Assembly: GCA_041657885.1 (NCBI GenBank)
Contig: JBBABB010000002.1
Location: 121,095 to 185,094 of the forward strand
Direction: 5' to 3'
Length of the DNA stretch: 64,000 nucleotides
Origin: Minisyncoccota bacterium
GTDB lineage: Bacteria; Patescibacteriota; Minisyncoccia; Phycocordibacterales; UBA9973
Shown here: one piece after another, positions 4,876-52,060 of the stretch
Numbering within the stretch: the stretch's first letter is position 1
Layout: every line of letters starts with the position of its first letter
Notes under the pieces: model-generated
Told to the model about the DNA's origin: nothing
The model's input: the letters and a program-made list of their open reading frames with translations, nothing else
Databases searched by the model: none
Program-made: the position numbers and the translations under genes

Positions 4876-4917
4876 TTAGTATATAGGTCGATCTTAAAAA
4901 AATAATTTAATTAATTT

Positions 4918-5091
4918 ATGTTTAACCTATTCAAAGAAAAATGTCCCATTTGTAAAATGGAACTACAAAAAGGAAAAGTTTATCCCGAAGAATCTGGTAA
5001 AAAGTTTTGTTCAGAGAATTGTAAAACAGAATACACACAACAGTTAGCTGACGGAAAATCACAACATTCTGGTGGTGGATGTTGCCATTAA
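4918..5091 (+). CDS. Small TRASH/YHS-like metal-binding protein (57 aa, below the ORF-track threshold)
   Basis: MFNLFKEKCPICKMELQKGKVYPEESGKKFCSENCKTEYTQQLADGKSQHSGGGCCH: C-x2-C...C-x3-C arrangement like TRASH/YHS domains plus C-terminal GGGCCH; sits in a metal/redox gene neighbourhood. Confidence 0.45.
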   Translation: MFNLFKEKCPICKMELQKGKVYPEESGKKFCSENCKTEYTQQLADGKSQHSGGGCCH

Positions 5092-23195: not shown

Positions 23196-25526
23196 ATGAC
23201 AACCTCTGAATTAATTTCTTATATAAGAAAACAAATCAACAATAATATATCAAGGGATTTAATAATATCTAAACTTATTGAGGTGGGATGGCACAGGGAA
23301 GATATAAATGAAGGTTTTTTGAGTGTTGACCAATATCGTGAACCGCTAGAAGGAGATAATCTATTTGAGGCAAAAAAAGAACTACCCAAAATGGAAGTTT
23401 TTAATATAGAAATTCCCAAGGTAGAAACTCCTATAGCAGAAACACCAAAAATAGAAATCCCTAAAATAGATATTTTTAATATAGAAACCCCCGTAGTAGA
23501 AACCCCCGTAGTAGAAACACCCGTAGTAGAAACACCCGTAGTAGAAACCCCCGTAGTAGAAACCCCCGTAGTAGAAACCCCCGTAGTAGAAACCCCCGTA
23601 GTAGAAACCCCCGTAGTAGAAACCCCCGTAGTAGAAACCCCTAAAGTGTGGACTCCAATGAAGGTACCAATAATAGAAAAGTCGCAAGTAGAGGTTAGTG
23701 ATTTAGATTTGAAAACAGAAACAACCAAGATAGCAATTCAGAACCTAGAATTATCACCCCTACAGGGGATTTCTCATGCCTACGGCAGACCTCCCGAAGG
23801 GATCGGTCGTAGAGAGACAACCCAAAAAGAAGAAACCAAAAGCGAAGAACTCCTCCCGACTCTTATGCCTAAAGCGGTTGTTGATTCTTTTGGTTCTATT
23901 AATAGAGCCAACTTAATAAAAACAGAAGATGATACAATTGTCTCTAATGAAACTCCCAAAAGTTATTTAATTAATAATTTACCCAAAATAGCAATGCTCT
24001 CTTCTTATAAGAATGATTTATTATCTGCAACTAAAATAAAAGAAGAAATTGTTAAAAAGAAAGGTTTTAAAACAATTAAATGGGTTATTGTTGCACTTGT
24101 AGTTATTTTAATATCTCTAGCTGTGTGGGTATTTGCAAGTGGATATATAAATATTAAAAATCTGAATCTCCCTTTTATTAAGAAAGACCCAAGGGTCTTA
24201 TTGTTAAATAATTCAAAAGTTTTATCTTCTTTAAAATCATATAAAACAGAGACGAACATAGAAATTTTATCGCCTTCTTTTGCAAATATTGCCTCTGGGC
24301 TTATAAGTGGAGAAGCCATACCTTCACCGGATAAGGACTCTATTTCTATTAATGTTTTAGGATTAATTAATAAAAATGGACAAGGTGTATTCTCTGATAA
24401 TTTTGTGACAATTAAGGGTTCTTTATTGCCAGATTACATTACTACAGATATAAAAAATAATAGCTTAGATTTATTTATCTCTATTCCAGATCTTAGTCAG
24501 GTTATAAATGAGAATGCACCAGAACCAACCGTAGTTAAAATAAATGAGCAACAATTTGAGTTAGTTCCACCCTTATTCTCTCCAAATATTGAATTGCAAC
24601 TTAAAAAAATAAATATTTATAAAATCCTATCAAGCGGAATGCCATCTTATATTAACAATGACACACTAAGTGTTTATGATGAATTTATTAATAGTGTAGA
24701 TATAGTAGCAAAGGGACAAGAAAATATTAAGGGCATAGATACTTATCATTATTCAATAAATACTGATAGGCAATTAGCAAAAAATCTTTTAAATAAAATT
24801 TCTGATAATTTTATATTAAATCTTTCGGGTGATGATAAAGATAATTTGGCTCAAATTTTGGGCTCAATTACAATAGATTCATTGGAAATTTGGGTTGGGA
24901 AAGGAGATAATAATATTTATCAATATAATGTGGTTCTTGATGTGCCATTATCAAAAATTATAGGTTTTGAGGATAGAAGTATTGGAGATAATCAGTTAAG
25001 AATTACTTGGAAAACGACTTATTATGATTTTAATATATCAAATAATATATCCATACCAGATACATCTACTGCCATTACAGATTTTGTAAATGGTGTTAAG
25101 GAGACGAAAATAAAAAATGATGTTTCCTCTTTTAAACAACTTGCAACAAGTTTGTTCAATGCAGAAGGTGCTTATGGGAAAAAATCAAACTCAAGCGGTA
25201 GTTGTATGAACCCGAGTTCTGGTTCGTTATTTTCACCCACTGGTCATATTAAAGGTGTAACTACAACCACAGCAGTTAGCTCCATATCAGTATTATTAAA
25301 TAAAGTTTTAGGAATAACTGGTGGGGCTGGTTTCTGTTACTCCACACCAAAAGCTTGGTCATTTACAATTCCAATCTCTGATAATTATGCTCAAGCTTCT
25401 ATTCCAGTGGGAGGTTATACATCTTTCTTTTGTATTGACAGTACTGGTTCTACACAAGACCTTACAACTCCTCCAACTGGTGTCGTTTGTCTACCTAAGG
25501 TTAATCTTCCAAAGGAAGGTAATTAA
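23196..25526 (+). CDS. Large repeat-containing membrane/surface protein
   Basis: 776 aa; 10 tandem PVVET repeats, one TM helix around residue 300, large Ser/Thr/Asn-rich C-terminal domain. Confidence 0.45.
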   Translation: MTTSELISYIRKQINNNISRDLIISKLIEVGWHREDINEGFLSVDQYREPLEGDNLFEAKKELPKMEVFNIEIPKVETPIAETPKIEIPKIDIFNIETPVVETPVVETPVVETPVVETPVVETPVVETPVVETPVVETPVVETPVVETPKVWTPMKVPIIEKSQVEVSDLDLKTETTKIAIQNLELSPLQGISHAYGRPPEGIGRRETTQKEETKSEELLPTLMPKAVVDSFGSINRANLIKTEDDTIVSNETPKSYLINNLPKIAMLSSYKNDLLSATKIKEEIVKKKGFKTIKWVIVALVVILISLAVWVFASGYINIKNLNLPFIKKDPRVLLLNNSKVLSSLKSYKTETNIEILSPSFANIASGLISGEAIPSPDKDSISINVLGLINKNGQGVFSDNFVTIKGSLLPDYITTDIKNNSLDLFISIPDLSQVINENAPEPTVVKINEQQFELVPPLFSPNIELQLKKINIYKILSSGMPSYINNDTLSVYDEFINSVDIVAKGQENIKGIDTYHYSINTDRQLAKNLLNKISDNFILNLSGDDKDNLAQILGSITIDSLEIWVGKGDNNIYQYNVVLDVPLSKIIGFEDRSIGDNQLRITWKTTYYDFNISNNISIPDTSTAITDFVNGVKETKIKNDVSSFKQLATSLFNAEGAYGKKSNSSGSCMNPSSGSLFSPTGHIKGVTTTTAVSSISVLLNKVLGITGGAGFCYSTPKAWSFTIPISDNYAQASIPVGGYTSFFCIDSTGSTQDLTTPPTGVVCLPKVNLPKEGN
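23483..23642 (+). repeat. Tandem 15-bp repeat (about 10 copies) encoding (PVVET)n inside the CDS
   Basis: cccgtagtagaaacc / cccgtagtagaaaca units repeated head to tail, in frame. Confidence 0.85.
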
Positions 25527-33492: not shown

Positions 33493-35211
33493 ATGAAAAG
33501 TGAAGCAAAAAATTGTCAGAATTGTAAAAAAGACTTTGTTATCGAGCCGGATGATTTTTCATTTTATGAAAAAATAAAAGTTCCACCGCCAACTTTTTGC
33601 CCGGAGTGTCGGGGGATGAGAAGAATGGTGTGGAGGAATGAGAGAATTTTTTATCATAGGACATGCAATCTTTGTGGGATAAAGGTAATTTCGGTATTCG
33701 GGAATAAAGATATTAAGGTGTATTGTCAGAAATGTTGGTGGGGAGATGGCTGGGATGGATTAGAGTACGAGCAAGATTATGATTTCTCAAAGAGTTTTTT
33801 TGAGCAATATAAAAATCTATTTAGAAACGTTCCACAGATTAATTTAAATGGTCACGCAACAAACAAAAATTCAGATTACGTTAATTATATAGTTCAAGCG
33901 AATAATTCTTATTATTGTTTTGGGGGAGGATACTTGGATAATATTATGTTTTCTACTGTTGGAGTTAGAATGAAAGATTCAGCAGAAATATATTTTTCAA
34001 TGGATTGTGAGTTTTGTTATGAAATACTAAATTGCCAAAAATGTTATAGAATTTATTATGGGAATAATTTGAGAGATTGTCTCGATAGTTATTTTTTACA
34101 AGATTGCGTGAATTGCAATGAATGTATATTGTCGTGTAACTTGCGCAACAAACAATATGTGTTTAGAAATGAACAATTGACGAGAGAAGAGTATTTGATG
34201 AAAAAAGAGGAATTTTTAATTCTGTTTAGAAAAGATGTTTCATTGTTAAAAAATGAATTTAAAAAAATAGTATTAGAAAAACCAAAAAAGTTTGCAAATA
34301 TATTGAAATCAGAATTTTCAACAGGAGATAATATAACCGAAAGTTCAAAAGTTTATGATTCTTTTAATGTTTCAAAAACTGAAAATTGTAAATACTCTCA
34401 AGATATAGTCGGCGTGGCCCATGATGTTTACGACAGTACTAGTATCGGCCTGGGATTAGAACGAGTGTATGAATCAATGTCAGTAAGCATGAATATAACA
34501 GATGTGAATTTTTCAGTAATAGTAAGAAGTGCATCATATAAATTAAATTATTCTTTTTCTATGCATGCATCTTCTAATTGTTTCGGTTGTGTAGGATTAA
34601 AAAGTAAATCTTATTGCATCCTCAACCGCCAATACACCAAAGAAGAATACGAAGAATTAGTTCCAAAGATCATCCAGCATATGAACGATATGCCCTACAT
34701 AGATAGCAAAGGAAGAATATACAAATATGGAGAGTTTTTTCCAAGTGAACTATCACCATTCTGTTACAACGAGACAATCGCCCAAGAGTATTTTCCTTTG
34801 ACTAAAGAACAAGCTCTACAACAAGGTTACAAATGGAAGGAGAAAGAAGAAAGAAACTACCAAATAGACATTAAAAATGAAGATATCCCTGATAATATTA
34901 AAGATATAACTGATGATATCATCGGTAAAGTCATAGAATGCTCTCACAAAGGCACCTGTAACCAACAATGTACCGAAGCCTTCAAGATAATCCCCGAAGA
35001 ACTCCAATTCTACCGTCGTATGAACCTTCCATTACCAAGACTTTGTCCCAACTGTCGGCACTATGAACGTCTAGCTCAACGTAATCCTATGAAATTATGG
35101 CATAGGAAGTGTATGCATGAGGGTTGTACCAATGAATTTGAGACGAATTATGCCCCAGAGAGACCCGAAATCATTTATTGTGAGAAATGTTATCAAAAAG
35201 AGGTGTATTAA
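33493..35211 (+). CDS. Cysteine-rich paralog 2 of 5
   Basis: Same architecture as 12953; N-terminus CQNCKKDFVIEPDDFSFYEKIKVPPPTFCPECR, C-terminus ...NYAPERPEIIYCEKCYQKEVY. Confidence 0.75.
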   Translation: MKSEAKNCQNCKKDFVIEPDDFSFYEKIKVPPPTFCPECRGMRRMVWRNERIFYHRTCNLCGIKVISVFGNKDIKVYCQKCWWGDGWDGLEYEQDYDFSKSFFEQYKNLFRNVPQINLNGHATNKNSDYVNYIVQANNSYYCFGGGYLDNIMFSTVGVRMKDSAEIYFSMDCEFCYEILNCQKCYRIYYGNNLRDCLDSYFLQDCVNCNECILSCNLRNKQYVFRNEQLTREEYLMKKEEFLILFRKDVSLLKNEFKKIVLEKPKKFANILKSEFSTGDNITESSKVYDSFNVSKTENCKYSQDIVGVAHDVYDSTSIGLGLERVYESMSVSMNITDVNFSVIVRSASYKLNYSFSMHASSNCFGCVGLKSKSYCILNRQYTKEEYEELVPKIIQHMNDMPYIDSKGRIYKYGEFFPSELSPFCYNETIAQEYFPLTKEQALQQGYKWKEKEERNYQIDIKNEDIPDNIKDITDDIIGKVIECSHKGTCNQQCTEAFKIIPEELQFYRRMNLPLPRLCPNCRHYERLAQRNPMKLWHRKCMHEGCTNEFETNYAPERPEIIYCEKCYQKEVY

Positions 35212-35410
35212 AATTCTCCTCTTGAGGTGAAGTTGGGTTGGGACCCAACTGTAAAACCTTTTGAGATATCTTTGTAATCAAAGTATCCAAAAGGTGTACT
35301 GCTCCTGTAAGGAGTACCCGCTAATGCGGGGGAGGTGGATGAATTTAATTCTGGATTAATTCATCCACCCCGTCTTTTGAGTACAAAATTCACCCCTCAA
35401 GAGGGGAATA
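35212..35410 (+). ncRNA. Conserved ~190-nt structured element, copy A (candidate ncRNA or 3'UTR element), directly after the paralog 2 stop
   Basis: About 93% identical to 45605-45792. Predicted closing helix cctcttgagg/cctcaagagg, hairpins agttggg..cccaact, ccttttg..caaaagg, cccgc taat gcggg, ggtggat..atccacc; the differences from copy B include compensatory pairs. Confidence 0.5.
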
Positions 35411-35499
35411 AATTTTGATCCAAAAATATGCTACCGCAGAACGATTATTTAGGGGACTTTTCAAAAAATATTGACTAATATCAAGCATCTTTTTATAAT

Positions 35500-35560
35500 A
35501 GCCATTTTTCTAGATATCCACTTGTTTTAAATTTTACAATAGGGGTATAATGTAATCCCA
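35500..35560 (+). promoter_or_regulatory. Putative sigma70-like promoter for the RNR gene
   Basis: The -10-like element ggggtataatgt about 45 nt upstream of ATG 35600, in an AT-rich intergenic region; positions approximate. Confidence 0.25.
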
Positions 35561-35599: not shown

Positions 35600-37975
35600 A
35601 TGCCTTCAAAAAAGAAAGTATCCAGCGTGAAAAAAAATGTGAAAAGGGTCGTCACAAAAAATTCTCCAGTTGCAGAAACAAAAAAATCAATTAAGAATAT
35701 TTTTATTAAAAGCGTTCAAAAAAGGGATGGTACAATCGTTCCTTTTGATATAGAAAAAGTAACGAATGCTATTAATAAAGCTATGCTTTCAAGTGGTGAA
35801 GGTTCTTCAAAAGAAGCGGAGCTTGTTGCCAATGGTGTTTTGATGGAATTAGTTAAAATTGCTAAAAAACACAAGAATTTTATTCCATCTGTTGAAGGAA
35901 TTCAGGATACAGTTGAACAAGAATTAATGTTGTCTGATTATGTGAAAACTTCTAAGCATTACATTCTTTATCGTGAAGAAAGAGCAAGACTAAGAGCTCA
36001 TAGCATAACTGTTCCAGTCCATTTGAAAAAGTTAGCAGATGAAAGCAAAAAATATTTTAGAACTTCCCTTGGTGAATTTGTTTATTACCGAAGTTATTCG
36101 AAGTGGATTAAAGAAGAGGGTAGACGTGAGACATGGATTGAGACAGTTAACCGTTATATGGATTTCATGAAAAAAAATCTTGGCAACAAATTAAAAGCAC
36201 ATGAGTATGATGAGGTTAGAGATTACATTTTGAAAAACAAAGCAATGCCTTCTATGAGATTGTTGCAATTTGCCGGTCGTGCTGCAGAAGCGACAAATGT
36301 TTGTGCATATAATTGCTCATTTATTGCACCTGAGAGTTTCCAAGACATTGCAGAGATAATGTACATATCAATGTGTGGCACTGGTGCTGGTTGGTCAGTG
36401 GAAAGTGAAAATGTTCAAAAGCTTCCACAAATAAAAGTTCAAACAGGCCAGAAACTCGCGACTCATATTATAGATGATAGTAAAGAGGGTTGGGCAGATG
36501 CATTTTCTCTTGGTATAAGCACTTGGGCAGATGGGAAAGATATTGATTTTGATTTTTCAAAACTTCGTCCAGCTGGAGCTCGTCTTATGACCATGGGGGG
36601 CAAAAGTTCAGGACCTGACCCATTACGTAAACTTCTCGGATTTACCCGCAAGAAAATATTTACGAAGCAAGGACGTCGTCTCTCAAATCTAGATGTTCAC
36701 GATATTATTTGTATGGTGGGGGATTGTGTTGTTTCTGGTGGAGTTAGAAGGAGTGCCATGATTTCACTTTCCGATTTAGATGATAATGATATAAGAGATT
36801 CTAAAAAAGGTCAATTTTACCTTACAGATCCTCATAGATCTCTGGCTAACAACTCAGCTGTCTATATGCGAAAACCTCCAGCAACGCAGTTTTTAGATGA
36901 ATGGATTTCATTAATGAAGTCAGGTTCTGGGGAAAGAGGAATATTTAATCGTGGATCACTTGCTAAAACTTTACCAAAACGCCGAATTGATTATTTAAAA
37001 GAAGAAGGATATTTTGATGCATCTGGAGAAAATATTATAGGAATTCTTGGAACAAATCCGTGTGGAGAAATAATTTTGCGCTCAAAACAATTTTGTAATT
37101 TATCAGAAGTTATTTGTAGAGAGGATGACACAAAAGAAAGTTTATTAGAAAAAGTCAGAATAGCAACAATTTTGGGGACTTATCAATCAACTTTAACCAA
37201 TTTCCCATATCTTTCAAAAGCATGGGCAAATAATTGTGCTGCCGAAAGATTGCTTGGGGTATCTCTCACTGGTCAATGGGATAATAAAATTGTTCGTAAT
37301 GCGGAAGTTTTGAAAATATTGAAGAATGAAGCGATAAGAGTAAATAAAGTTTATGCTAAGCGTTTTGAAATTAATACTTCTAATGCTATCACTTGTGTAA
37401 AGCCATCAGGAACAGTTTCTAAAACATTTGATACTGGTTCTGGAATGCACCCAAGACACGCTCCTTACTATATACAACGCATTCGTATTTCTTCAACCGA
37501 TTCATTATTTAAAATGTTGAAAGACCAAGGAGTACCTTATCATCCAGAAGTTGGTCAATCAATGGAAGATGCAAATACTTATGTTCTTGAATTTCCAATG
37601 AAGTCACCCGTCGGGTCAATTTTCAAAGACGACATTTCTTCTATTGAACAATTGGAACATTGGAAATTGGTAAAAGAAAATTATACCGAACATAATCCAT
37701 CTGTGACTATTTCTGTCGGAGATGATGAATGGCTTAAAGTTGCTCATTGGGTTTATGAGAATTGGGATATTGTTGGAGGGTTGTCATTCTTGCCAAGATC
37801 AAATCATGTTTACCAACTTGCACCTTATGAAGAAATAACTAGAGAACAATATGAAACTTTGATGAAGAAATTTCCAACGATTGATTATTCAAAAATTATT
37901 ACTTATGAAAAAGTAGATGAAACTGAAGTAAAAAGAGAACTCGCTTGTATTTCTGGAGTTTGTGATATAGTGTAA
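35600..37975 (+). CDS. Ribonucleotide reductase catalytic subunit with N-terminal ATP-cone; NPCGE active-site motif suggests class II (adenosylcobalamin-dependent, NrdJ-like)
   Basis: ATP-cone VQKRDGTIVPFDIEKVTNAI; active-site GTNPCGEIIL; C-terminal redox pair CISGVC; no small-subunit gene nearby. Confidence 0.7.
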   Translation: MPSKKKVSSVKKNVKRVVTKNSPVAETKKSIKNIFIKSVQKRDGTIVPFDIEKVTNAINKAMLSSGEGSSKEAELVANGVLMELVKIAKKHKNFIPSVEGIQDTVEQELMLSDYVKTSKHYILYREERARLRAHSITVPVHLKKLADESKKYFRTSLGEFVYYRSYSKWIKEEGRRETWIETVNRYMDFMKKNLGNKLKAHEYDEVRDYILKNKAMPSMRLLQFAGRAAEATNVCAYNCSFIAPESFQDIAEIMYISMCGTGAGWSVESENVQKLPQIKVQTGQKLATHIIDDSKEGWADAFSLGISTWADGKDIDFDFSKLRPAGARLMTMGGKSSGPDPLRKLLGFTRKKIFTKQGRRLSNLDVHDIICMVGDCVVSGGVRRSAMISLSDLDDNDIRDSKKGQFYLTDPHRSLANNSAVYMRKPPATQFLDEWISLMKSGSGERGIFNRGSLAKTLPKRRIDYLKEEGYFDASGENIIGILGTNPCGEIILRSKQFCNLSEVICREDDTKESLLEKVRIATILGTYQSTLTNFPYLSKAWANNCAAERLLGVSLTGQWDNKIVRNAEVLKILKNEAIRVNKVYAKRFEINTSNAITCVKPSGTVSKTFDTGSGMHPRHAPYYIQRIRISSTDSLFKMLKDQGVPYHPEVGQSMEDANTYVLEFPMKSPVGSIFKDDISSIEQLEHWKLVKENYTEHNPSVTISVGDDEWLKVAHWVYENWDIVGGLSFLPRSNHVYQLAPYEEITREQYETLMKKFPTIDYSKIITYEKVDETEVKRELACISGVCDIV

Positions 37976-38007
37976 AATAATTAAAAATTAAGAATTAAAA
38001 ATTAATA

Positions 38008-38532
38008 ATGAGAAACGGAATCAAATATGTTATTGCTTTTTTAGTTGTGTTAGTTATCAGACTGATGCCTTTTCGAGCACCAAATGTGGAGCCAATCATG
38101 GCAGTGATTATGCCATTCGGAAAAGTTTACGGAGGAATTATGGCTTTTATATTTGGGTTCCTTAGTATTGTTTTGTTTGACTCTGTAACGTCTGGCATAG
38201 GTATCTGGACCCTTGTCACCGCTCTTGCTTACGGTTTTGTGGGGTTAGGAGCTTATTTTTACTTCAAAAATCGCTCAGGATGGAAAAGTTATGCTTCTTA
38301 TGCAATTATAGCCACAATTCTATATGACGTATTGACTGGTCTTACTATTGGTCCATTGTTTTTCCACCAGTCATTCATGGTATCATTAGTAGGTCAGGTT
38401 CCGTTTACTGCTATGCACTTGCTTGGAAATGTTTCTTTTGCTATAGTTCTATCACCAGTAATTGAAAGATGGATAGTAAAAGAAAATATTTCAGAATCAA
38501 AAATAATGACAAGAGAGATAGTCAAGGTTTAG
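38008..38532 (+). CDS. Small polytopic membrane protein, possibly an ECF-transporter S-component-like vitamin transporter
   Basis: 174 aa, 5-6 TM helices, size and topology like ECF S components; no diagnostic motif. Confidence 0.3.
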   Translation: MRNGIKYVIAFLVVLVIRLMPFRAPNVEPIMAVIMPFGKVYGGIMAFIFGFLSIVLFDSVTSGIGIWTLVTALAYGFVGLGAYFYFKNRSGWKSYASYAIIATILYDVLTGLTIGPLFFHQSFMVSLVGQVPFTAMHLLGNVSFAIVLSPVIERWIVKENISESKIMTREIVKV

Positions 38533-38559
38533 TTTATTTAACAATCGAATACCTATTAT

Positions 38560-38722
38560 GTTTGGAAGTGAGGTTTAATTCCTCCACTGTGCCGCAACGG
38601 TAAAGTCCAACGCTAAGTGCGTTTAGGAACAAGTCCGATCTTAATATAATAGCGTTTGTCCCGAGCAGGAGAATACTTACTTTGTATTTTAAAAAACTTC
38701 TGCATGTGTAGGAGTTTTTTTT
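38560..38722 (+). promoter_or_regulatory. Candidate cobalamin riboswitch (aptamer plus terminator/SD-sequestering hairpin) upstream of the DUF4430 gene
   Basis: UGGAAGUGAGGUUUAAUUCC...CACUGUGCC GCAA CGG UAAAGUCC resembles cobalamin-riboswitch core elements (GGGAA..GGUG.AA.UCC...CACUG.CC..GG.GGGAAGUC in E. coli btuB); terminator cttctgc atgt gtaggag + T8 at 38697-38722 contains the AGGAG SD. Confidence 0.4.
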
Positions 38723-38733
38723 GATTTATATTT

Positions 38734-39171
38734 ATGAAAAATAATAAAAAAATTTCCATAGCATTTATAATATTTTCTATTTTATTTATAGGTTTTTTCT
38801 ATTATTTTAATTTTCAGATAGGGGTTAAACTCCTATCTGAGGTACAGAAAGGGCCTAAGGCCCTATCTGTGAAGAATGTAGAAGTTTCTTTAAATGTTTT
38901 AGATAAAAAATACGAAGTAGAAATAAGAGAGGACTCATCTGTTTTTGAAGTTATGCAGAAAATACAAGAAGAAAGTATGGGGAATAATTTATTTAGTTTT
39001 AAATACAGAGAACATCCGGGGTTAGGAATTTTTATAAATGAGATAAATGGTAAAAAAGGAGGAGAAGGTGGGTATTGGATTTATTATGTAAATGGGGAAG
39101 AAGCTAACATCGGAGTTTCTAATTATAAAATTAATAATGGAGATATAATCTCTTGGAAATATGAAAAATAA
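38734..39171 (+). CDS. DUF4430-like secreted protein (transcobalamin/intrinsic-factor beta-domain-like, putative B12 binding)
   Basis: N-terminal signal anchor; ~100-aa domain with the GGYWIYYVNGE...NNGDIISWKY C-terminal block characteristic of DUF4430. Confidence 0.45.
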   Translation: MKNNKKISIAFIIFSILFIGFFYYFNFQIGVKLLSEVQKGPKALSVKNVEVSLNVLDKKYEVEIREDSSVFEVMQKIQEESMGNNLFSFKYREHPGLGIFINEINGKKGGEGGYWIYYVNGEEANIGVSNYKINNGDIISWKYEK

Positions 39172-40984
39172 AATTATTTTTGCAATAATGTTTATTGCAT
39201 TCGCATTGTCTTTTGTTTTACCTGTTTTCGCTGATACAAAAATTAATTTACAAATAAAAACAAATACTCAAACAATTTATGATAGTGAAATAACTGTAAC
39301 CCCTTGCGATAGTGAAAGTGATGGAATATTAAAAGAGACTCCATATTGTGCACTTGCACAGTCTGGTACACCGAGTGATTGGACGGGCTTATGGGTGAAC
39401 TCTATAAATAATATAATCAATAATGATAATGGTAACGGCGCATATTGGATGTGGCTTGCAAATTTAAACATTGATACTAGCCCAACTTCTCCATATTCTC
39501 TCTCCTCTAAGCAATATATTTTACAAGGTAATGATAATATACTCTTTTACTATAATACAAACCCTCTTGATATATCTGTTGATAATGAAAATCCAAAAGT
39601 TGGGGAGAGTATAAAAATAACTGGGAAAGAATTAGGTCTGGATTCATCATGGAATCCTTTATGGAATAAAGCTATTGGTGGGAAAGTAGTAATTAATGGA
39701 GAAGAACACGAATTAAATGAAAATGGTGAATTTCTGTTTGAAATAATAAATGAAGATAGTCTTTTAATAAAAATAAAAAAAGAGAATTTTATTGATTCAA
39801 GAGAAGTAACAATAACACCGGAGAAAATTAGAAGGAGCAGTGGAAGCAGAGCAGGATCTTATATCAACACAAGTGTAATAGAAAAATCGTTTTCTGTAGC
39901 TAATGCGATTTTATTTTTATCTCAAAATCAACAAAATGATAGGTCATATGGTTTACCCATGTACACTGACTGGGTAGCGATAGCGGTATCAGCAGGAGAT
40001 AATTCTAATCTGAAATTAAGTATAACAAATTATTTAAAATCAAATTCTATAAATTCATCTATTCTTACAGATAATGAAAGGCGTGCTATGTCCTTAATGG
40101 CTCTTGGAATTAATCCATACATAGGAACTGATGTAAATTATATTAAGAAAATTACTGATAATTTTGATGGAATACAATTCGGAGATAATTCACTTATAAA
40201 TGATGACATCTTTGCTTTGATTGTTCTTAAAAATGCAGGCTATACTATAAATGATGAAATAATTATAAAAGATATAAATTATATAATTTCAAAACAATTT
40301 TTAGATGGTTCGTGGGGAAATGTTGATATGACTTCTGCTGGTATTCAAGCGTTAAGAAGTTTTGAAAATATTGTTTTAGTACCAGAATCTATTTCAAAAG
40401 CAGAAAATTATTTGATTTCAAGTCAAGAACCTGACGGGGGATTTGGTAATTCATTTTCAACTTCTTGGGCATTACAGTCATTACAAAATAATGACCAGAT
40501 TTTAAAAGCTCTGAAATATTTAACTTCAAAGCAAGAAGTAGATGGAGGAATGGAAAGCATTGATGTAGACATAAATACTCGTATTTGGGTGACTGCTTAT
40601 GTAATACCTGCCATGCTTCATAAACCTTGGAATGAAATTTTAAATAATTTTCCTAAAGAAATAGTATTAGATGATTCTGTTCCGACAAAAATAGAAGATA
40701 AAAAAATTATTGAGGTTCCCAAAATAAAAAATATAAGGAAGTCCAACTTCCTTAAAATCTCTGGAAGCCTGCCCGACGACGGCAAGGCGGGTTCGACTTC
40801 CAGAAATTCTGAATCTTTATCAAAAAATTTAGAAGAAAAGGACATTTCAGTTAATCCATTATCAGTAAGTGCTATTGGATCTAATCAAAATAATAATAGT
40901 GGCACATTTTTCCCTGTAATTTATAGAATTTTACAAAAAATAAGAATTCCATTTGTGTGGCTTTGGGTTCACCTTGGTTTTTGA
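39161..40984 (+). CDS. Secreted alpha/alpha-toroid (prenyltransferase/terpene-cyclase-like repeat) protein with C-terminal hydrophobic anchor
   Basis: Signal peptide; four repeats of the QxxDGGWG type (LSQNQQNDRSYGL, QFLDGSWGN, SQEPDGGFGN, SKQEVDGGME) typical of the alpha6/alpha6 barrel fold shared with the transcobalamin alpha-domain. Confidence 0.45.
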   Translation: MKNKIIFAIMFIAFALSFVLPVFADTKINLQIKTNTQTIYDSEITVTPCDSESDGILKETPYCALAQSGTPSDWTGLWVNSINNIINNDNGNGAYWMWLANLNIDTSPTSPYSLSSKQYILQGNDNILFYYNTNPLDISVDNENPKVGESIKITGKELGLDSSWNPLWNKAIGGKVVINGEEHELNENGEFLFEIINEDSLLIKIKKENFIDSREVTITPEKIRRSSGSRAGSYINTSVIEKSFSVANAILFLSQNQQNDRSYGLPMYTDWVAIAVSAGDNSNLKLSITNYLKSNSINSSILTDNERRAMSLMALGINPYIGTDVNYIKKITDNFDGIQFGDNSLINDDIFALIVLKNAGYTINDEIIIKDINYIISKQFLDGSWGNVDMTSAGIQALRSFENIVLVPESISKAENYLISSQEPDGGFGNSFSTSWALQSLQNNDQILKALKYLTSKQEVDGGMESIDVDINTRIWVTAYVIPAMLHKPWNEILNNFPKEIVLDDSVPTKIEDKKIIEVPKIKNIRKSNFLKISGSLPDDGKAGSTSRNSESLSKNLEEKDISVNPLSVSAIGSNQNNNSGTFFPVIYRILQKIRIPFVWLWVHLGF

Positions 40985-41027: not shown

Positions 41028-41453
41028 ATGAATACAATTCATTTGCTTGAGCCCCTCGTTTGTTGTTATAATACCGCCATGCAAACAAAATTCATTGTAT
41101 TTATAGTATTGGTAGTTTTTCTTGTTGGAGGTTTTGGTATTTATATGGGTTTAAAACCAGAAACACCTAGTAAATTAGATGGTTTTGCTCAATGTTTGAA
41201 ATCTTCTGGAGCAGAGTTTTATGGTGCATTTTGGTGTATTCATTGTCAAGAACAGAAAGCAGAATTTGGTACATCTTCAAAATATCTTCCCTACGTTGAA
41301 TGTGCTAATCCAGACAATACTCAAAAACAGATTTGTATTGATAAAAAAATTGAAGGTTATCCAACTTGGATTTTTGCTGATGGGACAAGACTTTCAGGAA
41401 AATTATCTTTTGAAACTTTAGCTGAAAAAACACAGTGCATTCTGCCTCAATAA
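41028..41453 (+). CDS. Membrane-anchored thioredoxin-like protein (CxxC); true start probably Met at 41078
   Basis: TM helix then FWCIHCQEQKAEFG CxxC active site. Confidence 0.5.
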   Translation: MNTIHLLEPLVCCYNTAMQTKFIVFIVLVVFLVGGFGIYMGLKPETPSKLDGFAQCLKSSGAEFYGAFWCIHCQEQKAEFGTSSKYLPYVECANPDNTQKQICIDKKIEGYPTWIFADGTRLSGKLSFETLAEKTQCILPQ

Positions 41454-41536: not shown

Positions 41537-43252
41537 ATGAAGAATGAAATTAAAAGCTGTCAAAACTGCAAGCTTCAATTTACAATTGAGTCCGATGATT
41601 TTTCATTTTACGAAAAAATTAAAGTTCCTCCACCAACTTTTTGTTCTGAGTGCAGGATGAAAGCACGTTATGCTTTTCGTAGTCAGACATCTCTATATAG
41701 AAGAATTTGTGACCTTTGTAAAGTAAGTATTATATCTATGTATGATTCAGATAAACCATTTCCAGTATATTGTCGAGATTGCTTTTATGGAGATAAATGG
41801 GATGCCACTTCATATGAACAGGATTATGATTTTGATAAATCATTTTTTGAGCAATTTAAAGAGTTAATGAATAAAACTCCACGAATTGCACTCATAGGGA
41901 CTAATAAGATAAATAGTGATTATACGACGCATTGCAGTGATATTAAAAATTGTTATTTATGTTTTAGTATTGGTCATTCCGAAGATTGTTTTTATCTAGG
42001 TCCTCAGTGTGTTAATGATAAGAATTGTTCTTCTTGCTCGATAACAAGATTTTCTGAATGGTCTTATATGCTTGTTGATTGTGAACAATGTTATAAAGTG
42101 AGTTTTTCTCAAATTTCTGTTAACTGTATTGAATCAATGTTTTTGTATGATTGTAGAAATTGTCAAAATTGTTTGGGTTGTACTAACTTAAGAAATAAGA
42201 ATTATTTTATTCTTAATCAACAATACACTAAGGAAGAATATTTAGTTAAGAAAAAAGAGTTAGCCCTTAATACATTTGATGGTTTTGAAAAATTCAAAAA
42301 AGAGTTTGAAAATTTAAAGAAAATATCCCTTCATAAATATTCTAGTGTAACTAATTCAAAAGATTGTACTGGTGATAACATTATTAATTCTCGAAACTGC
42401 AAAAATTGTTTCGTTATTTATGATTCAGAGAATACAAAATACAGTTATATCTGCAATAAAGCAAAAGAATGTATGGATGTTACTCATGTTTATCCATCTT
42501 CCGAATTTTCTTATTATTCCATTGCTCCTATTTATTCAAGTAAAATATACTTTTCTTCATTTATACAGTCGAATAGTTATGATATGTGGTATTCTGATAA
42601 TTGTTATACTTCTCATGATTGTTTTGGTTCAATATCTTTAAAAAATAAAAGTTATTGTATTTTAAATAAGCAATATACAGAAGAAGAATATTTTAAATTA
42701 AAGGAAAAGATAATTTTTCAGATGAGTTCTGTGCCATATTTAGGTAAGAATAATAGAGTTTATAATTTTGGTGATTTTTTCCCGTTTGAAATAAGTCCTT
42801 TTGATTATAATGAAAGTGTTCTTCAGGAATATTTTCCATTAACGAAAGAAGAAATTTTAAAAAGTGGATATTCTTGGCATGATCCTATTAATAAATCTTA
42901 CGAAATATCTATAAAAGCAGAAGATTTATCTTTACGTATTCAAGAAATTGGAGATGATATAATAAAAGAAACAATAGAGTGCGAACATAAAGGAAATTGT
43001 GCACATAATTGTAGTACAGCTTTTCGTATTTTACCAGATGAAATGCAAATTTATAAAACACTTGAAGTTCCTATCCCCAAATTATGTCAAAATTGTCGTT
43101 ATGCGGAAAGAATTTCATTAAGAAATCCAATGAAACTCTGGCATCGGTCTTGTATGAAAGAAGGGTGTATTAATGAATTTGAGACCTCTTATGCGCCAGG
43201 AAGGCCTGAAATTGTTTATTGTGAGAATTGTTATAATAAAGAAATATATTGA
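41537..43252 (+). CDS. Cysteine-rich paralog 3 of 5
   Basis: N-terminus CQNCKLQFTIESDDFSFYEKIKVPPPTFCSECR, C-terminus ...SYAPGRPEIVYCENCYNKEIY; same internal blocks. Confidence 0.75.
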   Translation: MKNEIKSCQNCKLQFTIESDDFSFYEKIKVPPPTFCSECRMKARYAFRSQTSLYRRICDLCKVSIISMYDSDKPFPVYCRDCFYGDKWDATSYEQDYDFDKSFFEQFKELMNKTPRIALIGTNKINSDYTTHCSDIKNCYLCFSIGHSEDCFYLGPQCVNDKNCSSCSITRFSEWSYMLVDCEQCYKVSFSQISVNCIESMFLYDCRNCQNCLGCTNLRNKNYFILNQQYTKEEYLVKKKELALNTFDGFEKFKKEFENLKKISLHKYSSVTNSKDCTGDNIINSRNCKNCFVIYDSENTKYSYICNKAKECMDVTHVYPSSEFSYYSIAPIYSSKIYFSSFIQSNSYDMWYSDNCYTSHDCFGSISLKNKSYCILNKQYTEEEYFKLKEKIIFQMSSVPYLGKNNRVYNFGDFFPFEISPFDYNESVLQEYFPLTKEEILKSGYSWHDPINKSYEISIKAEDLSLRIQEIGDDIIKETIECEHKGNCAHNCSTAFRILPDEMQIYKTLEVPIPKLCQNCRYAERISLRNPMKLWHRSCMKEGCINEFETSYAPGRPEIVYCENCYNKEIY

Positions 43253-43882: not shown

Positions 43883-45604
43883 TTGGAATACCAATCAACA
43901 ATAAAACAGTGTCAAAATTGCAAGAATGACTTCACCATTGAGTCCGATGATTTTTCATTTTATGAAAAAATAAAGGTTCCTGCCCCAACTTTTTGTCCGG
44001 AGTGCCGTATGATAAGAAGAATGACTTGGAGGAATGAAAGGTCTTTTTTTAAAAGGGATTGTGATTTTACTGGTAAACCGATAATCACAATGTTCCATCC
44101 TGAAGCTAATGTAAAAATATATGATCATGATGTTTGGTGGAGTGATAAATGGGAACCAACTGATTACGGCATGGATTATGATTTTTCTCGACCGTTCTTT
44201 AAGCAATATCAAGAACTTTTGTCTAAAGTTCCGCTTCAAAACTTAGGAAATAATCGTTGCATTAATTCCCCATATTGTAACCATTGTGCTGACTGTAAAA
44301 ATTGTTATTTAGTTTATGCTTCTTATCTGGCTGAAGATATTTTATATTCTCAAGGGGCTGGTTCTTTAAAAAGTTGTATTGACACTTATTCAATTATGAA
44401 ATCGGAGCAATGTTATGAAGACGTTCTTTGTGATTCTCTATATCAGGTCAATTTTTCTTTTGGCTCTGATCAATCAATTAATTCTTCTTTTTTGAAAGAA
44501 TGTATAAATTGTCAAGAATGTATCTGTTGTATAAATCTTCGTAATAAAAAATATTGTATTTTTAATAAGCAATATACCAAAGAAGAATATTTAAAAATTA
44601 AAGAAAGTTTAGATTTTGGAAGTTATAAAGTATTGTCTGAATTTAAAAAACAATATAAAGAATTCATTCTTAAATTTCCTTGCAAATATGCTGGAATATT
44701 AAAATCTCCTGATTCATCTGGGGATTGTATTTTAAATTCAAAAAATGTAAAACAGTCTTTTGATATTTACGGCGATATTGAAGATTCAAAATATGTAGCT
44801 CATGGTTTAGGGGCTAAAGACAGTTATGATGTTTATGGTTTTGGAGCTGGAGCTTTTCTTTTGTATGAGGGAGTAGATATTGGTATTAGGGGATCCAATA
44901 ATTATTTTTGCGTTCTTAATCATGGAAGCATTAATACTCAATATACTTATATGTGCTATAATGCCAAAAATCTTTTTGGTTGTATTGGTATAAGAAAAGG
45001 AGAATATTGTATTTTAAATAAAAAATATTCTAAAGAAAAATATGAAGAATTGGTTCCTAAAATAATAGAACATATGAACAATATGCCTTACATAGATAAT
45101 AAGGGTAGAATCTATAAATATGGAGAATTTTTTCCATCAGAATTAAGTCCATTTGCTTACAACGAAACCATAGCACAAGAATATTTTCCTAAAACAAAAA
45201 ACGAAATAGAAAACGATGGATATTTGTACAGAAAATCTCCCAAAAGGGAATATAAAACGACTATAAATTCTAAAGATTTACTAGATAATATAAATGAAGT
45301 AAATGATAATATCATAGATGAAATTATCGCTTGCCCAAATAATGGCAATGAATTAACCTTATGTACACAAGCATATCGCATAGTTAAAGATGAATTAACT
45401 TTTTTAAGAAGATATAATATCGCCTTACCGCGTTACTGTCCTAATTGCAGACACTATGAACGCCTATCTCAAAGAAATCCTATGAAATTATGGCACCGAA
45501 AATGCATGAAGGAAGGATGTAATAATGAATTTGAGACAAGTTATGCCCCAGAAAGGCCCGAGATTATTTATTGTGAGAAGTGCTATCAGAAGGAAGTGTA
45601 TTAA
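43883..45604 (+). CDS. Cysteine-rich paralog 4 of 5
   Basis: N-terminus CQNCKNDFTIESDDFSFYEKIKVPAPTFCPECR, C-terminus ...SYAPERPEIIYCEKCYQKEVY; a block near residues 388-440 is almost identical in protein to paralog 2. Confidence 0.75.
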   Translation: MEYQSTIKQCQNCKNDFTIESDDFSFYEKIKVPAPTFCPECRMIRRMTWRNERSFFKRDCDFTGKPIITMFHPEANVKIYDHDVWWSDKWEPTDYGMDYDFSRPFFKQYQELLSKVPLQNLGNNRCINSPYCNHCADCKNCYLVYASYLAEDILYSQGAGSLKSCIDTYSIMKSEQCYEDVLCDSLYQVNFSFGSDQSINSSFLKECINCQECICCINLRNKKYCIFNKQYTKEEYLKIKESLDFGSYKVLSEFKKQYKEFILKFPCKYAGILKSPDSSGDCILNSKNVKQSFDIYGDIEDSKYVAHGLGAKDSYDVYGFGAGAFLLYEGVDIGIRGSNNYFCVLNHGSINTQYTYMCYNAKNLFGCIGIRKGEYCILNKKYSKEKYEELVPKIIEHMNNMPYIDNKGRIYKYGEFFPSELSPFAYNETIAQEYFPKTKNEIENDGYLYRKSPKREYKTTINSKDLLDNINEVNDNIIDEIIACPNNGNELTLCTQAYRIVKDELTFLRRYNIALPRYCPNCRHYERLSQRNPMKLWHRKCMKEGCNNEFETSYAPERPEIIYCEKCYQKEVY

Positions 45605-45792
45605 AATTCTCCTCTTGAGGTGAAGTTGGGTTGGGACCCAACTGTAAAACCTTTTGAGATATCTTTGTAATCAAAGTATCCAAAAGGTGTACTGCTCCTG
45701 TAAGGAGTACCTGTTAATGCAGGGGAGGTGGATATATTTAACTTATCCACCCCGTCCTTTGGGTACAAAGTCCACCCCTCAAGAGGGGAATA
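45605..45792 (+). ncRNA. Conserved ~190-nt structured element, copy B, directly after the paralog 4 stop
   Basis: First 108 nt identical to copy A; remaining differences keep base-pairing (cccgc/gcggg to cctgt/gcagg; shortened ggtggat..atccacc hairpin). Confidence 0.5.
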
Positions 45793-45840
45793 AAACACAG
45801 ATTCTTATTCTTTTTTGTTTTTATTTGGTATAATATAACT

Positions 45841-48077: not shown

Positions 48078-49808
48078 ATGTCAAGCACAAAATCACAAAT
48101 CAAAATCTGTCAGAACTGTAAAAAAGACTTCATTATTGAGCCAGATGATTTTCTATTCTATGAAAAAATAAAAGTCCCTCCACCCACTTTTTGCCCGGAG
48201 TGTAGGATGATTAGAAGAATGACTTTTAGAAATGAAAGGACTCTTTATAGAAGAACTTGTGAAGCAAAGGAACATGGGGAACAAATACTTTCTGTATTTT
48301 CACCTGATAAAAAACAAAAAGTATTTTGTCATAGTGCTTGGTGGGGTGATAGCTGGGATGGAATTGAATATGCAAAAGATTATGATTTTTCAAAAACTTT
48401 TTTCTCTCAAATACAGGAATTATGGCAATCTGTCCCAGACATAGGACTTTTCAATATTAATCCAGTAAATAGTGAATATTGTAGTATAACAGAAGGTAAT
48501 AAAAATTGTTATTTAGTAATTGGTGGTGATTTTAATGAGGATACAAGGTATTCCTGTTTTATATTTCATAGCAAGGAATGTGCTGATTGCTATGGTATAT
48601 CAAAAAGCGAGTGGAATTATGAAGTTATAGATTCAATTCAAAATTATAACTTATCATACAGTCAATATTGTGAAGGTTGTTATGATAGTGTTTTTTTATT
48701 TAATTGTAAAAATTGTAGTAATTGTTTTGGTTGTACTAATTTAAATAATGGTTCTTATTCTTGGTTTAATGAACAATTAACAAAAGACGAATACAAAACA
48801 AGATTAGAAGAAATAAATTTAGGAAGTTATATCTCTATACTAAAACATAAAAAAGATTTTTATGAATTTTCGTTAAAATTTCCTAGAAAGTATTCTAGAA
48901 TACTAAGGTCTGTAAATTCTACAGGAGACAATATGGAACAAGCTAAAAATTGTAAAGAATGTTTTGGGATTTTTGATGGAGCGGAAGATTGTAGATATTT
49001 ATGGTTAATATACTCGAAAATAACGAATTCTTTTGATTCAGATCATTCAGGATTAAAATCAAATTTACTTTATGAATGTTCAACTGTCTATCCTGGCAAT
49101 ATTGTATTATTTTCACGTTTTATATTTAATGGACGCGAAGTAGAATATTCATATAATTGCCACAACTCGTCAAATATTTTTGGATGTATAGGTTTAAGAA
49201 ATAAACAATATTGTATTTTAAATAAGCAGTATTCTAAAGAAGAATATAAGGAATTAAGACTAAAAATTATAGAGCATATGAATAAAACCCCATATGTTAA
49301 TAGTGCAGGGAATATATATAAATATGGTGAATTTTTTCCAGAAGAAATTTCTCCTTTTGCTTATAATGAAACTGTAGCAAATGAATTGCTTCCATTAGGA
49401 GAAGAAAAAGTAAAAAAGAGTGGATATCTCTGGAAACAAAAGGAAGGGAAGAACTATGCAATTACAAAAAACTTTAACGATTTACCAGATAATATTAATC
49501 AAGTGGATATTTCTATAACAAAGGAAACGATACAATGTACTCACAATGGTAATTGTAATGATGGATGTTCTACAGCATTTAAAATAACAGAAGATGAATT
49601 AAATTTCTATAAAAAAATGAATATTCCATTACCAAGACTATGTTCAAATTGTAGACACTATGAAAGATTGCAAAGCAGGAATCCTATAAAGCTCTGGCAT
49701 CGAACTTGCATGAAAGAAGGGTGTAATAATGAATTTGAGACAAGCTACGCCCCAGAGAGACCGGAAATTGTGTATTGTGAGAAGTGTTATCAACAAGAGG
49801 TATATTAA
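48078..49808 (+). CDS. Cysteine-rich paralog 5 of 5
   Basis: N-terminus CQNCKKDFIIEPDDFLFYEKIKVPPPTFCPECR, C-terminus ...SYAPERPEIVYCEKCYQQEVY. Confidence 0.75.
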   Translation: MSSTKSQIKICQNCKKDFIIEPDDFLFYEKIKVPPPTFCPECRMIRRMTFRNERTLYRRTCEAKEHGEQILSVFSPDKKQKVFCHSAWWGDSWDGIEYAKDYDFSKTFFSQIQELWQSVPDIGLFNINPVNSEYCSITEGNKNCYLVIGGDFNEDTRYSCFIFHSKECADCYGISKSEWNYEVIDSIQNYNLSYSQYCEGCYDSVFLFNCKNCSNCFGCTNLNNGSYSWFNEQLTKDEYKTRLEEINLGSYISILKHKKDFYEFSLKFPRKYSRILRSVNSTGDNMEQAKNCKECFGIFDGAEDCRYLWLIYSKITNSFDSDHSGLKSNLLYECSTVYPGNIVLFSRFIFNGREVEYSYNCHNSSNIFGCIGLRNKQYCILNKQYSKEEYKELRLKIIEHMNKTPYVNSAGNIYKYGEFFPEEISPFAYNETVANELLPLGEEKVKKSGYLWKQKEGKNYAITKNFNDLPDNINQVDISITKETIQCTHNGNCNDGCSTAFKITEDELNFYKKMNIPLPRLCSNCRHYERLQSRNPIKLWHRTCMKEGCNNEFETSYAPERPEIVYCEKCYQQEVY

Positions 49809-51523: not shown

Positions 51524-52060
51524 ATGAAAAATATTTTCAAAAAAAAGAAAAATTTGGTGTCGGGGTTTACCCCCACACCAAATTTCACAAAGAAAAGGAA
51601 TTTGGTGTGGGGGTTTACTATTATAGAAGTATTAGTAGCTTGTGTCATAATAACGACAACGACTATCGCTTTAATGTCAGCTACTTCAAAAGGGATAGAG
51701 CTTTCTAATAGAGCATTAAGACAAGTGCAAGCGAATATGCTTATGGAAGAAGGAGTTGAGGCGGTTAAATCAATAAGAGATACTAGTTGGGCGACAATTT
51801 CAGGAAAAAGTTTAAATACGAATTATTATTTATCTTTTTCAGGTGCTTGGATTCTTGGGACAACTCCAGTAGCACAAATAGATGAAATTTTTACTAGAAA
51901 AGTTATTTTCTCGGCGGTTAATCGTGATAGTAATGATGATATCGCTTCTTTCGGAATTGTTGATATAGGAATTAAAAGAGTAAATGTTATAGTTGAGTGG
52001 TCAACTCCTAGTGGAATAAATTCAAAAAGTATAACATTTTATTTAGCCAATATTTTTTAA
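51524..52060 (+). CDS. Prepilin-type protein with unusually long leader (second G-F-T site)
   Basis: Leader MKNIFKKKKNLVSGFTPTPNFTKKRNLVWGFTIIEVLV; class III signal peptide. Confidence 0.55.
   Translation: MKNIFKKKKNLVSGFTPTPNFTKKRNLVWGFTIIEVLVACVIITTTTIALMSATSKGIELSNRALRQVQANMLMEEGVEAVKSIRDTSWATISGKSLNTNYYLSFSGAWILGTTPVAQIDEIFTRKVIFSAVNRDSNDDIASFGIVDIGIKRVNVIVEWSTPSGINSKSITFYLANIF

Follow-up and report, generated by a model that had tools for sequence, protein, structure and literature searches.

The locus described here raises the question of how a bacterium with a tiny genome, a member of Candidatus Paceibacterota (candidate phyla radiation, CPR; Patescibacteria) according to the label of public proteins that are 100% identical to its own, obtains the adenosylcobalamin (AdoCbl) used by its ribonucleotide reductase (RNR). 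We analysed a 64,000-nt stretch of contig JBBABB010000002.1 (referred to as the window), in which the genes of an RNR (791 aa), a small membrane protein resembling the S component of energy-coupling factor (ECF) transporters (174 aa), a solo SLBB/DUF4430 protein (145 aa), a protein composed of SLBB, immunoglobulin-like (Ig-like) and toroid domains (607 aa) and a thioredoxin-like protein (141 aa) follow one another on the forward strand. This locus is probably a B12-repressed module for the capture of corrinoids at the cell surface and for their use, which supplies the RNR; of its steps, we infer the binding of the ligand and the passage through the membrane. A gap of 201 nt, containing a riboswitch, separates the ECF-S-like open reading frame (ORF) from that of the solo SLBB protein, and the latter overlaps the ORF of the 607-aa protein by 11 nt. 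All features listed in a preliminary description of this DNA were found at the coordinates given there, the ORFs exactly so and including the overlapping start, and with their scores they lie far above chance expectation (Table 1).

The solo SLBB protein was assigned to DUF4430 (PF14478) with an E-value of 1.1e-15 (58.2 bits; gathering score 23.8). Its AlphaFold2 (AF2) model (pLDDT 83) begins with a helix (residues 6-28) that has no obvious cleavage site, followed, within residues 48-144, by (i) two β-strands (48-55 and 58-65), (ii) a helix (70-81), (iii) a hairpin (89-94/98-104) and (iv) two further strands (113-119 and 138-144). This is a β-grasp with a hairpin after the helix, and the insertion of a hairpin at this point is the signature of the transcobalamin-like SLBB clade (PMC1796856). 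A Foldseek search with the model retrieved transcobalamin or haptocorrin as all 15 of its top 15 matches, the best being the isolated β domain of human transcobalamin (5no0; E-value 9.7e-8, TMt 0.81, root-mean-square deviation 1.9 Å), and the top PDB sequence match of the family profile is the haptocorrin β domain. The view of this protein as a DUF4430-like counterpart of the transcobalamin β domain is therefore borne out by both the profile match and the comparison of structures. The Foldseek list also contains 5np4, in which the isolated β domain of human transcobalamin was solved with bound cyanocobalamin. Since such a domain holds the ligand by itself, the solo SLBB protein could equally act as a relay for the corrinoid.

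The domain layout of the 607-aa protein was derived from its AF2 model together with an alignment of 46 homologues. Besides the three domains listed in Table 1, it contains (i) a Sec signal peptide (residues 1 to ~24; VFA/DT), which is kept in the 46 homologues, (ii) a short disordered linker between the Ig-like domain and the toroid (~223-243; pLDDT below 50 at residues 225-239), (iii) a disordered, low-complexity linker of about 80 residues (503-584) and (iv) a short, conserved C-terminal helix (585-604). The helix forms part of a C-terminal tail (residues 585-607; positions 40913-40981) that reads PF.WLW.HLGF, FSWLL.KL[GS]F or NWF..LL.KIFSIF across the homologues. Its shortness and basic character argue against a classical transmembrane helix, and the tail may serve as an anchor or as a sorting signal specific to the lineage. 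The Ig-like domain is absent from shorter homologues (~490-510 aa).

The N-terminal domain of the 607-aa protein is a second, divergent SLBB domain. In the AF2 model (residues 26-131) it has a β-β-α-hairpin-β-β topology, with the elements in the same order as in the solo SLBB protein. The Pfam model of DUF4430 misses it in the 607-aa protein itself; an hhalign comparison with the DUF4430 family gave an E-value of 6.9e-5 over the YW...N / Y.I..GD motifs, PF14478 exceeds its gathering score at the equivalent N-terminal position in six homologues, and a hidden Markov model (HMM) built on this domain also picks up the solo SLBB genes in the majority of loci. The domain also carries a conserved pair of cysteines (Cys49/Cys63). 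Five relatives of the large protein (those of the related loci L058, L063, L065, L073 and L077) have two tandem N-terminal SLBB-like domains before the toroid. It had been suggested that the two genes encode the two halves of a transcobalamin as separate proteins. The presence of a β-type and an α-type fold was upheld, but the separation is not a clean one: because the 607-aa protein has an SLBB domain and an Ig-like domain of its own, the pair is better described as β plus (β-Ig-α).

The toroid was modelled by AF2 as a single barrel of 12 helices spanning about 250 residues (246-493), and the four Q-x-x-D-G-like repeats reported previously were located at residues 257, 379, 422 and 458. In the window protein, the Pfam matches of this region were SQHop_cyclase_C (4e-6) and Cobalamin_bind (PF01122; 1.5e-4, with a score below the cut-off); across the 46 family members they were SQHop_cyclase_C (44/46), TED (21/46) and Cobalamin_bind (19/46, at E-values below 1e-3), and homologues P0055, P0072 and P0115 pass the gathering score of PF01122. 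Foldseek matches of the toroid comprise class II terpene cyclases (2e-7), complement TED domains, and transcobalamin, haptocorrin and intrinsic factor (2e-6 to 8e-5). The best PDB match of the toroid of the close homologue P0055 is haptocorrin, with alignment of the GN(S/T)FST...ALQ and (V/I)PA(L/M)..K segments, and it is the C-terminal third of this homologue that aligns best with haptocorrin. The alignment revealed a set of invariant polar and aromatic residues (Y268, D270, W271, D304, R307, N347-D349, D389, T391, W436, W476, T478 and Y480). As these are placed, according to the alignment and the model, at the N-terminal ends of even-numbered helices, they should lie on one face of the barrel, as for a ligand site. 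In public databases the 607-aa protein is annotated as a [quoted passage not shown] or as a member of the "terpene cyclase/mutase family". This label is misleading.

A cobalamin riboswitch had been suspected in front of the two genes, and this was confirmed. At the gathering score, Rfam yields only tRNAs in the window; in E-value mode, RF01482 was detected with 47.6 bits against a threshold of 50. In the same gap of orthologous loci this family scores 56.8, 51.7 and 50.4 bits (above the threshold) and 40.6 bits, and the more distant locus L005 passes RF01689 (the AdoCbl-II model). A covariance model of our own, built from six copies, detected the riboswitch in 65 of 82 related loci, invariably upstream of the genes and on their strand. 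Among 64 distinct sequences, 92.6% of the pair cells hold standard pairs (37-47% in slid controls), and double compensatory changes occur at 21 of the 31 pairs.

Directly 3′ of the aptamer is an intrinsic terminator, both stem arms of which covary in L001, L003, L007 and L009. At its 3′ edge, the aptamer carries the invariant heptamer GCAGGAG (38664-38670), which, if the 3′ arm of the terminator is withheld, can pair with the 5′ arm (-10.4 kcal/mol); as the heptamer could thus serve as an antiterminator, a terminator/antiterminator off-switch is plausible. The aptamer begins 4 nt past the stop codon of the ECF-S-like gene, and the best promoter-like sites lie 5′ of the RNR gene; for these reasons the riboswitch may act inside a longer transcript.

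The RNR had been proposed to belong to class II on account of its NPCGE motif and the lack of a small subunit, and this assignment was upheld. Pfam identified an N-terminal ATP-cone (4.2e-21), RNR_Alpha (2.2e-11) and, weakly, the class II insertion domain RNR-II_ins_dom (PF21995; 2e-4), which reaches E-values of at most 1e-5 in the orthologues. The top NCBIfam family is TIGR02505, the AdoCbl-dependent ribonucleoside-triphosphate reductase (RTPR), with an E-value of 2e-84 and a score of 284 bits, which is below the equivalog cut-off of 340. The closest solved relative, the RTPR of Lactobacillus leichmannii (1L1L; 1.4e-43), can be aligned with almost all of the catalytic part, GTNPCGEI and the C-terminal C-x4-C included; the two enzymes thus have in common the TNPCGE loop with the thiyl-radical cysteine and the C-terminal cysteine pair, and they differ in the N-terminal ATP-cone, which is absent from 1L1L. 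Pfam scans covered about 47 of the window ORFs, and among these no NrdB-like radical-generating subunit was found, nor any EcfT/EcfA, cobalamin-synthesis or adenosyltransferase gene. By sequence, the enzyme is an AdoCbl-dependent class II RNR of the monomeric RTPR type, supplemented with an ATP-cone.

A scan of one genome per GTDB species identified relatives in 288 species-level genomes. From these, 80 loci were fetched for neighbourhood counts; almost all of them belong to Patescibacteria, and a few have evidently doubtful bin labels. The solo SLBB gene is located directly 5′ of the toroid gene in 74 of the 80 loci (the remainder are mostly cut off), with the 11-nt overlap seen in the window and in related loci. 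The riboswitch directly precedes the solo SLBB gene in 59 of the 67 loci with enough flank; a further riboswitch was recognized by Rfam in L083, and in two loci one lies between the two genes. Of 64 loci, 32 have an RNR gene 5′ in the same orientation and 23 have the S-like gene 5′, 22 of the latter alongside the RNR; in these 22 the S-like gene sits between the RNR gene and the riboswitch, while in two other loci (L049 and L060) it is 3′ of the toroid gene, inside the riboswitch-controlled unit. Six metagenomic loci have the common order RNR, S-like gene, riboswitch, SLBB, SLBB-toroid, Trx-like gene and, in some, DsbB. Judging from these counts, the invariant core consists of the riboswitch, the solo SLBB gene and the SLBB-toroid gene, and the RNR and the S-like protein are frequent, non-obligatory neighbours. 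In L070, a group I intron match (4829-5078, minus strand; 61.3 bits, above the gathering score) was found just 3′ of the toroid gene.

The small ECF-S-like membrane protein of the earlier account is present, with a match to PF07155 (ECF-ribofla_trS) slightly below the cut-off. Its orthologues are 64-71% identical, compared with 41-60% for the toroid protein across the same loci; most of them carry a precomputed PF07155 assignment and some are named "ECF transporter S component". BtuM of Thiobacillus, which works without an ECF module, is likewise a small polytopic S-component-like membrane protein in a B12 context, and the window protein may also work without such a module; the conserved cysteine of the BtuM type is absent from its family. 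Another small S-component-like protein in a B12 context is ECF-CbrT of L. delbrueckii (PMC5997447). Kinship to the structures of CbrT, BtuM or RibU was considered and rejected, given an empty PDB profile search: there is no detectable sequence similarity to the solved S components, and the Pfam assignment, which is borderline, is to the RibU type.

Taken together, these data support the earlier reading of the locus as a system for the capture of B12 at the cell surface: the solo protein belongs to the DUF4430 family and not to an unrelated one, the RNR is of class II and not class I, and the 607-aa protein, whose toroid is a secreted single barrel with neither DxDD nor DDxxD, does not appear to be a true prenyltransferase with intact Asp-rich motifs. 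The module would operate as follows. When AdoCbl is sufficient, it would bind the aptamer and the terminator would form, so that transcription, coming from the RNR/ECF-S-like unit or from a promoter of its own, would stop before it reaches the genes of the binders. Under scarcity of B12, read-through would give rise to both tethered proteins, positioned on the outside of the membrane. The corrinoid would be trapped between the toroid face and a β-grasp domain, as in transcobalamin, intrinsic factor and haptocorrin, and the binders would hand it to a membrane permease, for which the adjacent ECF-S-like protein is the best candidate. The cofactor would then be adenosylated and used by the RNR.

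Several observations weigh against this interpretation. The riboswitch of the window is 2.4 bits under the Rfam gathering score, and the match of the toroid to PF01122 reaches 21.3 bits with a cut-off of 25. In the fold search, transcobalamin cannot be told apart from terpene cyclases or TED domains. An N-D-D-I-F-A-L motif is invariant in the toroid family and 20 of the 46 homologues read DNDD, a match to the DxDD motif of class II enzymes. With respect to the membrane step, PF07155 is borderline (E-value 1.2e-5; 25.9 bits, cut-off 26.7), and a PDB profile search with the ECF-S-like protein retrieved no solved protein at an E-value of 10 or less. EcfT/EcfA genes are lacking among the scanned window ORFs and among the neighbouring genes of L001-L009, and the ECF-S-like gene, lying 5′ of the riboswitch, tracks the RNR (22/23) rather than the binders. 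In 28 of 64 loci, the binder genes have neither an RNR nor an S-like gene as a neighbour. Finally, a homologous β/α pair in an ECF operon of Latilactobacillus sakei has been linked to the uptake of haem (bioRxiv 10.1101/864751).

The last of these points raises the question of whether the ligand is another tetrapyrrole, such as haem, or an incomplete corrinoid (cobinamide) instead of complete cobalamin. The prediction of Burroughs et al. extends to "B12 or its precursors" (PMC1796856), and haptocorrin is a universal corrinoid binder according to the title of 4kki; on the other hand, an AdoCbl riboswitch stands over these genes in about 90% of loci, the enzyme encoded next to them requires AdoCbl, and haem-related genes were not seen among the scanned window ORFs, which makes such a ligand unlikely. 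More improbable still, to the point that we give it very little credit, is that the toroid protein is an extracytoplasmic enzyme resembling class II terpene cyclases or prenyltransferases, with a merely regulatory link to B12. Squalene-hopene cyclase repeats are its best Pfam, NCBIfam and PDB sequence matches, drimenyl diphosphate synthases are its top Foldseek matches, and the absence of DxDD, once regarded as a clean argument against an enzyme, had to be abandoned as such: it holds for the window protein, and is weakened by the invariant N-D-D and by DNDD in 20 of the 46 homologues. The first Asp of the motif is nevertheless not conserved, the window protein reading I-N-D-D with Ile at this position; there is no DDxxD, and conserved Cys or His residues for a zinc site are absent from the toroid. 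Furthermore, the cyclases have two barrels (β-γ) and the window protein one of about 250 residues, the known enzymes, with two barrels or as α/β heterodimers, are intracellular and this protein carries a Sec signal peptide together with a tether to the surface, it is both fused to and paired with B12-type SLBB domains under a cobalamin riboswitch, and haptocorrin is the best match for the C-terminal third of the close homologue.

It is quite possible, if short of probable, that the 607-aa protein binds the corrinoid alone, as a circularly permuted transcobalamin whose own SLBB domain sits on the toroid, and that the solo SLBB protein is a membrane-proximal shuttle to the permease. Both domain types are indeed present in its single chain, the isolated transcobalamin β domain of 5np4 holds cyanocobalamin, some relatives have two N-terminal SLBB copies, and operons with a second paralogous extracellular SLBB were noted by Burroughs et al. 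(PMC1796856). The N-terminal SLBB is, however, far more divergent than the solo one, to the extent that Pfam misses it in the window protein, an Ig-like domain and a disordered linker intervene between it and the toroid, and the 11-nt overlap of the genes suggests that the two proteins are produced together in stoichiometric amounts.

A more specific version of the B12-repressed module can be put forward tentatively, although we consider it doubtful. It would constitute a minimal binding-protein-dependent route of B12 import, in which two tethered transcobalamin-type binders deliver to a solitary ECF-S-like permease without EcfT/EcfA; the mid-operon riboswitch and its terminator would end the RNR/permease transcript when B12 is plentiful and, under scarcity, permit read-through into the genes of the binders. 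Such a route, if real, would break the rule that S-component transporters use no extracytoplasmic binding proteins, and would define how ultra-small episymbionts obtain the cofactor of their only RNR. The genomes of CPR/Patescibacteria are minimal, and these bacteria rely on other cells; the locus indicates that scavenged B12 is needed for the supply of deoxyribonucleotides, at least for the part that this RNR provides, and the relatives in 288 species-level genomes indicate a wide occurrence, within this group, of a dedicated surface-capture module repressed by B12. The protein family could be re-annotated, and it offers small, stable candidates for corrinoid-binding reagents. The current understanding of how such systems work is unchanged.

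The same logic of capture is known from Bacteroides, in which BtuG and BtuH, surface-tethered high-affinity corrinoid binders encoded behind cobalamin riboswitches, feed a membrane transporter. The folds are unrelated (BtuG is a β-propeller), and delivery is to a TonB-dependent transporter of the outer membrane. The eukaryotic carriers transcobalamin, intrinsic factor and haptocorrin (2BB5, 2PMV and 4KKI) are made of the same two building blocks, PF01122 (α) and PF14478 (β), and are also extracellular. They differ from the window proteins in several respects: (i) their order is α-linker-β in a single chain, in place of β-Ig-α, (ii) the extra β domain on a separate polypeptide is found only here, (iii) they are soluble, whereas both window proteins are membrane-tethered, and (iv) the window genes are riboswitch-regulated, and their PF01122 match is below the cut-off.

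The capture of B12 by transcobalamin-like proteins of bacteria is an idea already predicted in 2007, a split pair is known from L. sakei, and the locus is not new in kind. Burroughs, Balaji, Iyer and Aravind (2007), who defined the SLBB superfamily, described bacterial fusions of SLBB and toroid domains in either order as well as fusions with Ig domains, and operons that contain a further, paralogous extracellular SLBB and CbiO/CbiQ neighbours; they noted that SLBB-toroid systems occur in B12 non-producers and predicted B12 scavenging for Gram-positive bacteria (PMC1796856). The window locus shares with these systems the secreted SLBB and α/α toroid (C-terminal, as in the Bacillus example), the Ig-fold fusion, the second paralogous extracellular SLBB gene in the operon and the predicted role in scavenging. 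In those operons, energising ECF genes of the CbiO/CbiQ type are usual; none lies near the window locus, whose neighbours are a class II RNR and an S-like protein on its own, and, whereas the clade was regarded as a Gram-positive innovation, the present lineage belongs to Patescibacteria. With this family, the bacterial relatives of animal transcobalamin are no longer confined to Firmicutes, a point relevant to the bacterial origin that has been proposed for the animal carriers (PMC1796856).

In L. sakei, Verplaetse et al. reported separate β-like and α-like genes (Lsa1839/Lsa1840) in an ECF operon (Lsa1836-1838) and assigned them to haem (10.1101/864751). Both there and in the window, adjacent genes for secreted β-like and α-like proteins occur near an ECF-type S component, and the handover of a tetrapyrrole to a transporter is proposed. 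The L. sakei operon differs in its complete ECF module and in its assignment to haem; the window has a cobalamin riboswitch and no ECF A/T genes nearby, and its α protein also contains a β domain of its own. Literature searches yielded no paper on this system in Patescibacteria, including its cobalamin riboswitch, and, with regard to characterised bacterial SLBB-toroid binders, nothing beyond the two studies cited above (PMC1796856 and 10.1101/864751).

Table 1. Predicted features of the B12 locus and their positions in the window.
Feature	Position	Strand	Basis
Likely promoter region of the RNR/ECF-S-like unit	35471..35551	+	Sigma-70-like match and conserved motif (putative function)
Class II (AdoCbl-dependent) RNR, monomeric RTPR type, N-terminal ATP-cone (791 aa)	35600..37975	+	Pfam, NCBIfam, 1L1L alignment
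ECF-S-like polytopic membrane protein (174 aa), candidate corrinoid permease	38008..38532	+	PF07155 (presumed substrate)
AdoCbl (cobalamin) riboswitch aptamer	38536-38678	+	RF01482 (clan CL00101), 47.6 bits, E 1.3e-6
Intrinsic terminator, putative riboswitch expression platform	38691..38728	+	13-pair stem then T-run (38691-38720)
Solo SLBB/DUF4430 protein (145 aa), predicted transcobalamin β-domain fold, N-terminal membrane anchor	38734..39171	+	PF14478; AF2
Secreted SLBB-Ig-toroid protein (607 aa), Sec signal peptide (VFA/DT), conserved C-terminal tail	39161..40984	+	AF2 (pLDDT 82)
N-terminal divergent SLBB/DUF4430 domain, residues ~25-134	39233..39562	+	AF2, hhalign, homologue Pfam
Ig-like β-sandwich spacer, residues ~135-222	39563..39826	+	AF2 strands across 135-218
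α6/α6 toroid, candidate corrinoid-binding α domain, residues ~244-495	39890..40645	+	AF2, 12 helices
Thioredoxin-like membrane-anchored protein (141 aa)	41028..41453 (probable start 41079)	+	Thioredoxin 8.9e-5 and CxxC

The thioredoxin-like (Trx-like) gene next to the toroid gene has a homologue in the same place, directly 3′, in 30 of 80 loci, and there it is usually followed by DsbB (e.g. L001 7740-8670, L007 8068-9004 and L009 7763-8704); in the window, the DsbB gene is missing after it. Because of the conserved Cys49/Cys63 pair in the N-terminal SLBB of the 607-aa protein, one may speculate that the Trx-like protein is a dedicated disulfide-forming accessory of the locus.

At the other end of the locus, the best sigma-70-like match of the region is TTGACT-17-TATAAT (35471-35499; 11/12). 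The motif GGGGTATAAT (35542-35551) is conserved 5′ of the RNR gene in L001, L008 and L009; its extended form, GGGGTATAAT(N5)CCC (35542-35559), is located about 50 nt 5′ of the RNR start and may be either a -10 box inside a small hairpin or an operator. Further upstream, a non-coding element of about 200 nt is present, which occurs twice in the window (35212-35412 and 45605-45794; 88-100% identity) and is more conserved than the ends of the adjoining paralogous coding regions. It was considered as a leader RNA of the RNR and rejected, being missing at orthologous loci, recurring after another gene and carrying terminal inverted repeats. Owing to these repeats (CTCCTCTTGAGGTG ... CACCCCTCAAGAGGGG) and to its GC-rich hairpins, it looks like an insertion resembling a miniature inverted-repeat transposable element (MITE).

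Inspection of the remainder of the window revealed a family of paralogous Cys-rich proteins of about 572 aa (12953-14671, 33493-35211, 41537-43252, 43883-45604, 48078-49808 and possibly 56261-57985), with at least 5 copies in 64 kb. They have zinc-ribbon-like N- and C-termini (CQNCK...CPECR ... CPNCRHYER ... CEKCYQKEVY) and gave no significant match in Pfam, NCBIfam or PDB; members of the family flank the B12 locus in the window as well as in L001, L008 and L009. Two types of repeats were also identified. Within ORF 23196-25526, whose 776-aa product has a weak extensin-like match alone, a 15-nt unit (TAGAAACCCCCGTAG) is repeated in tandem about 16 times (23392-23691) and encodes a V-E-T-P-V-type repeat. 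A 65-nt repeat (51563-51627 and 52086-52150; 92% identical), which forms a perfect long hairpin (CCCCCACACCAAATT...AATTTGGTGTGGGGG), is placed at the 5′ ends of the adjoining ORFs 51524-52060 and 52065-52610. The window of this CPR genome also encodes a full-length serpin (20834-22201; PF00079, 4.6e-117).

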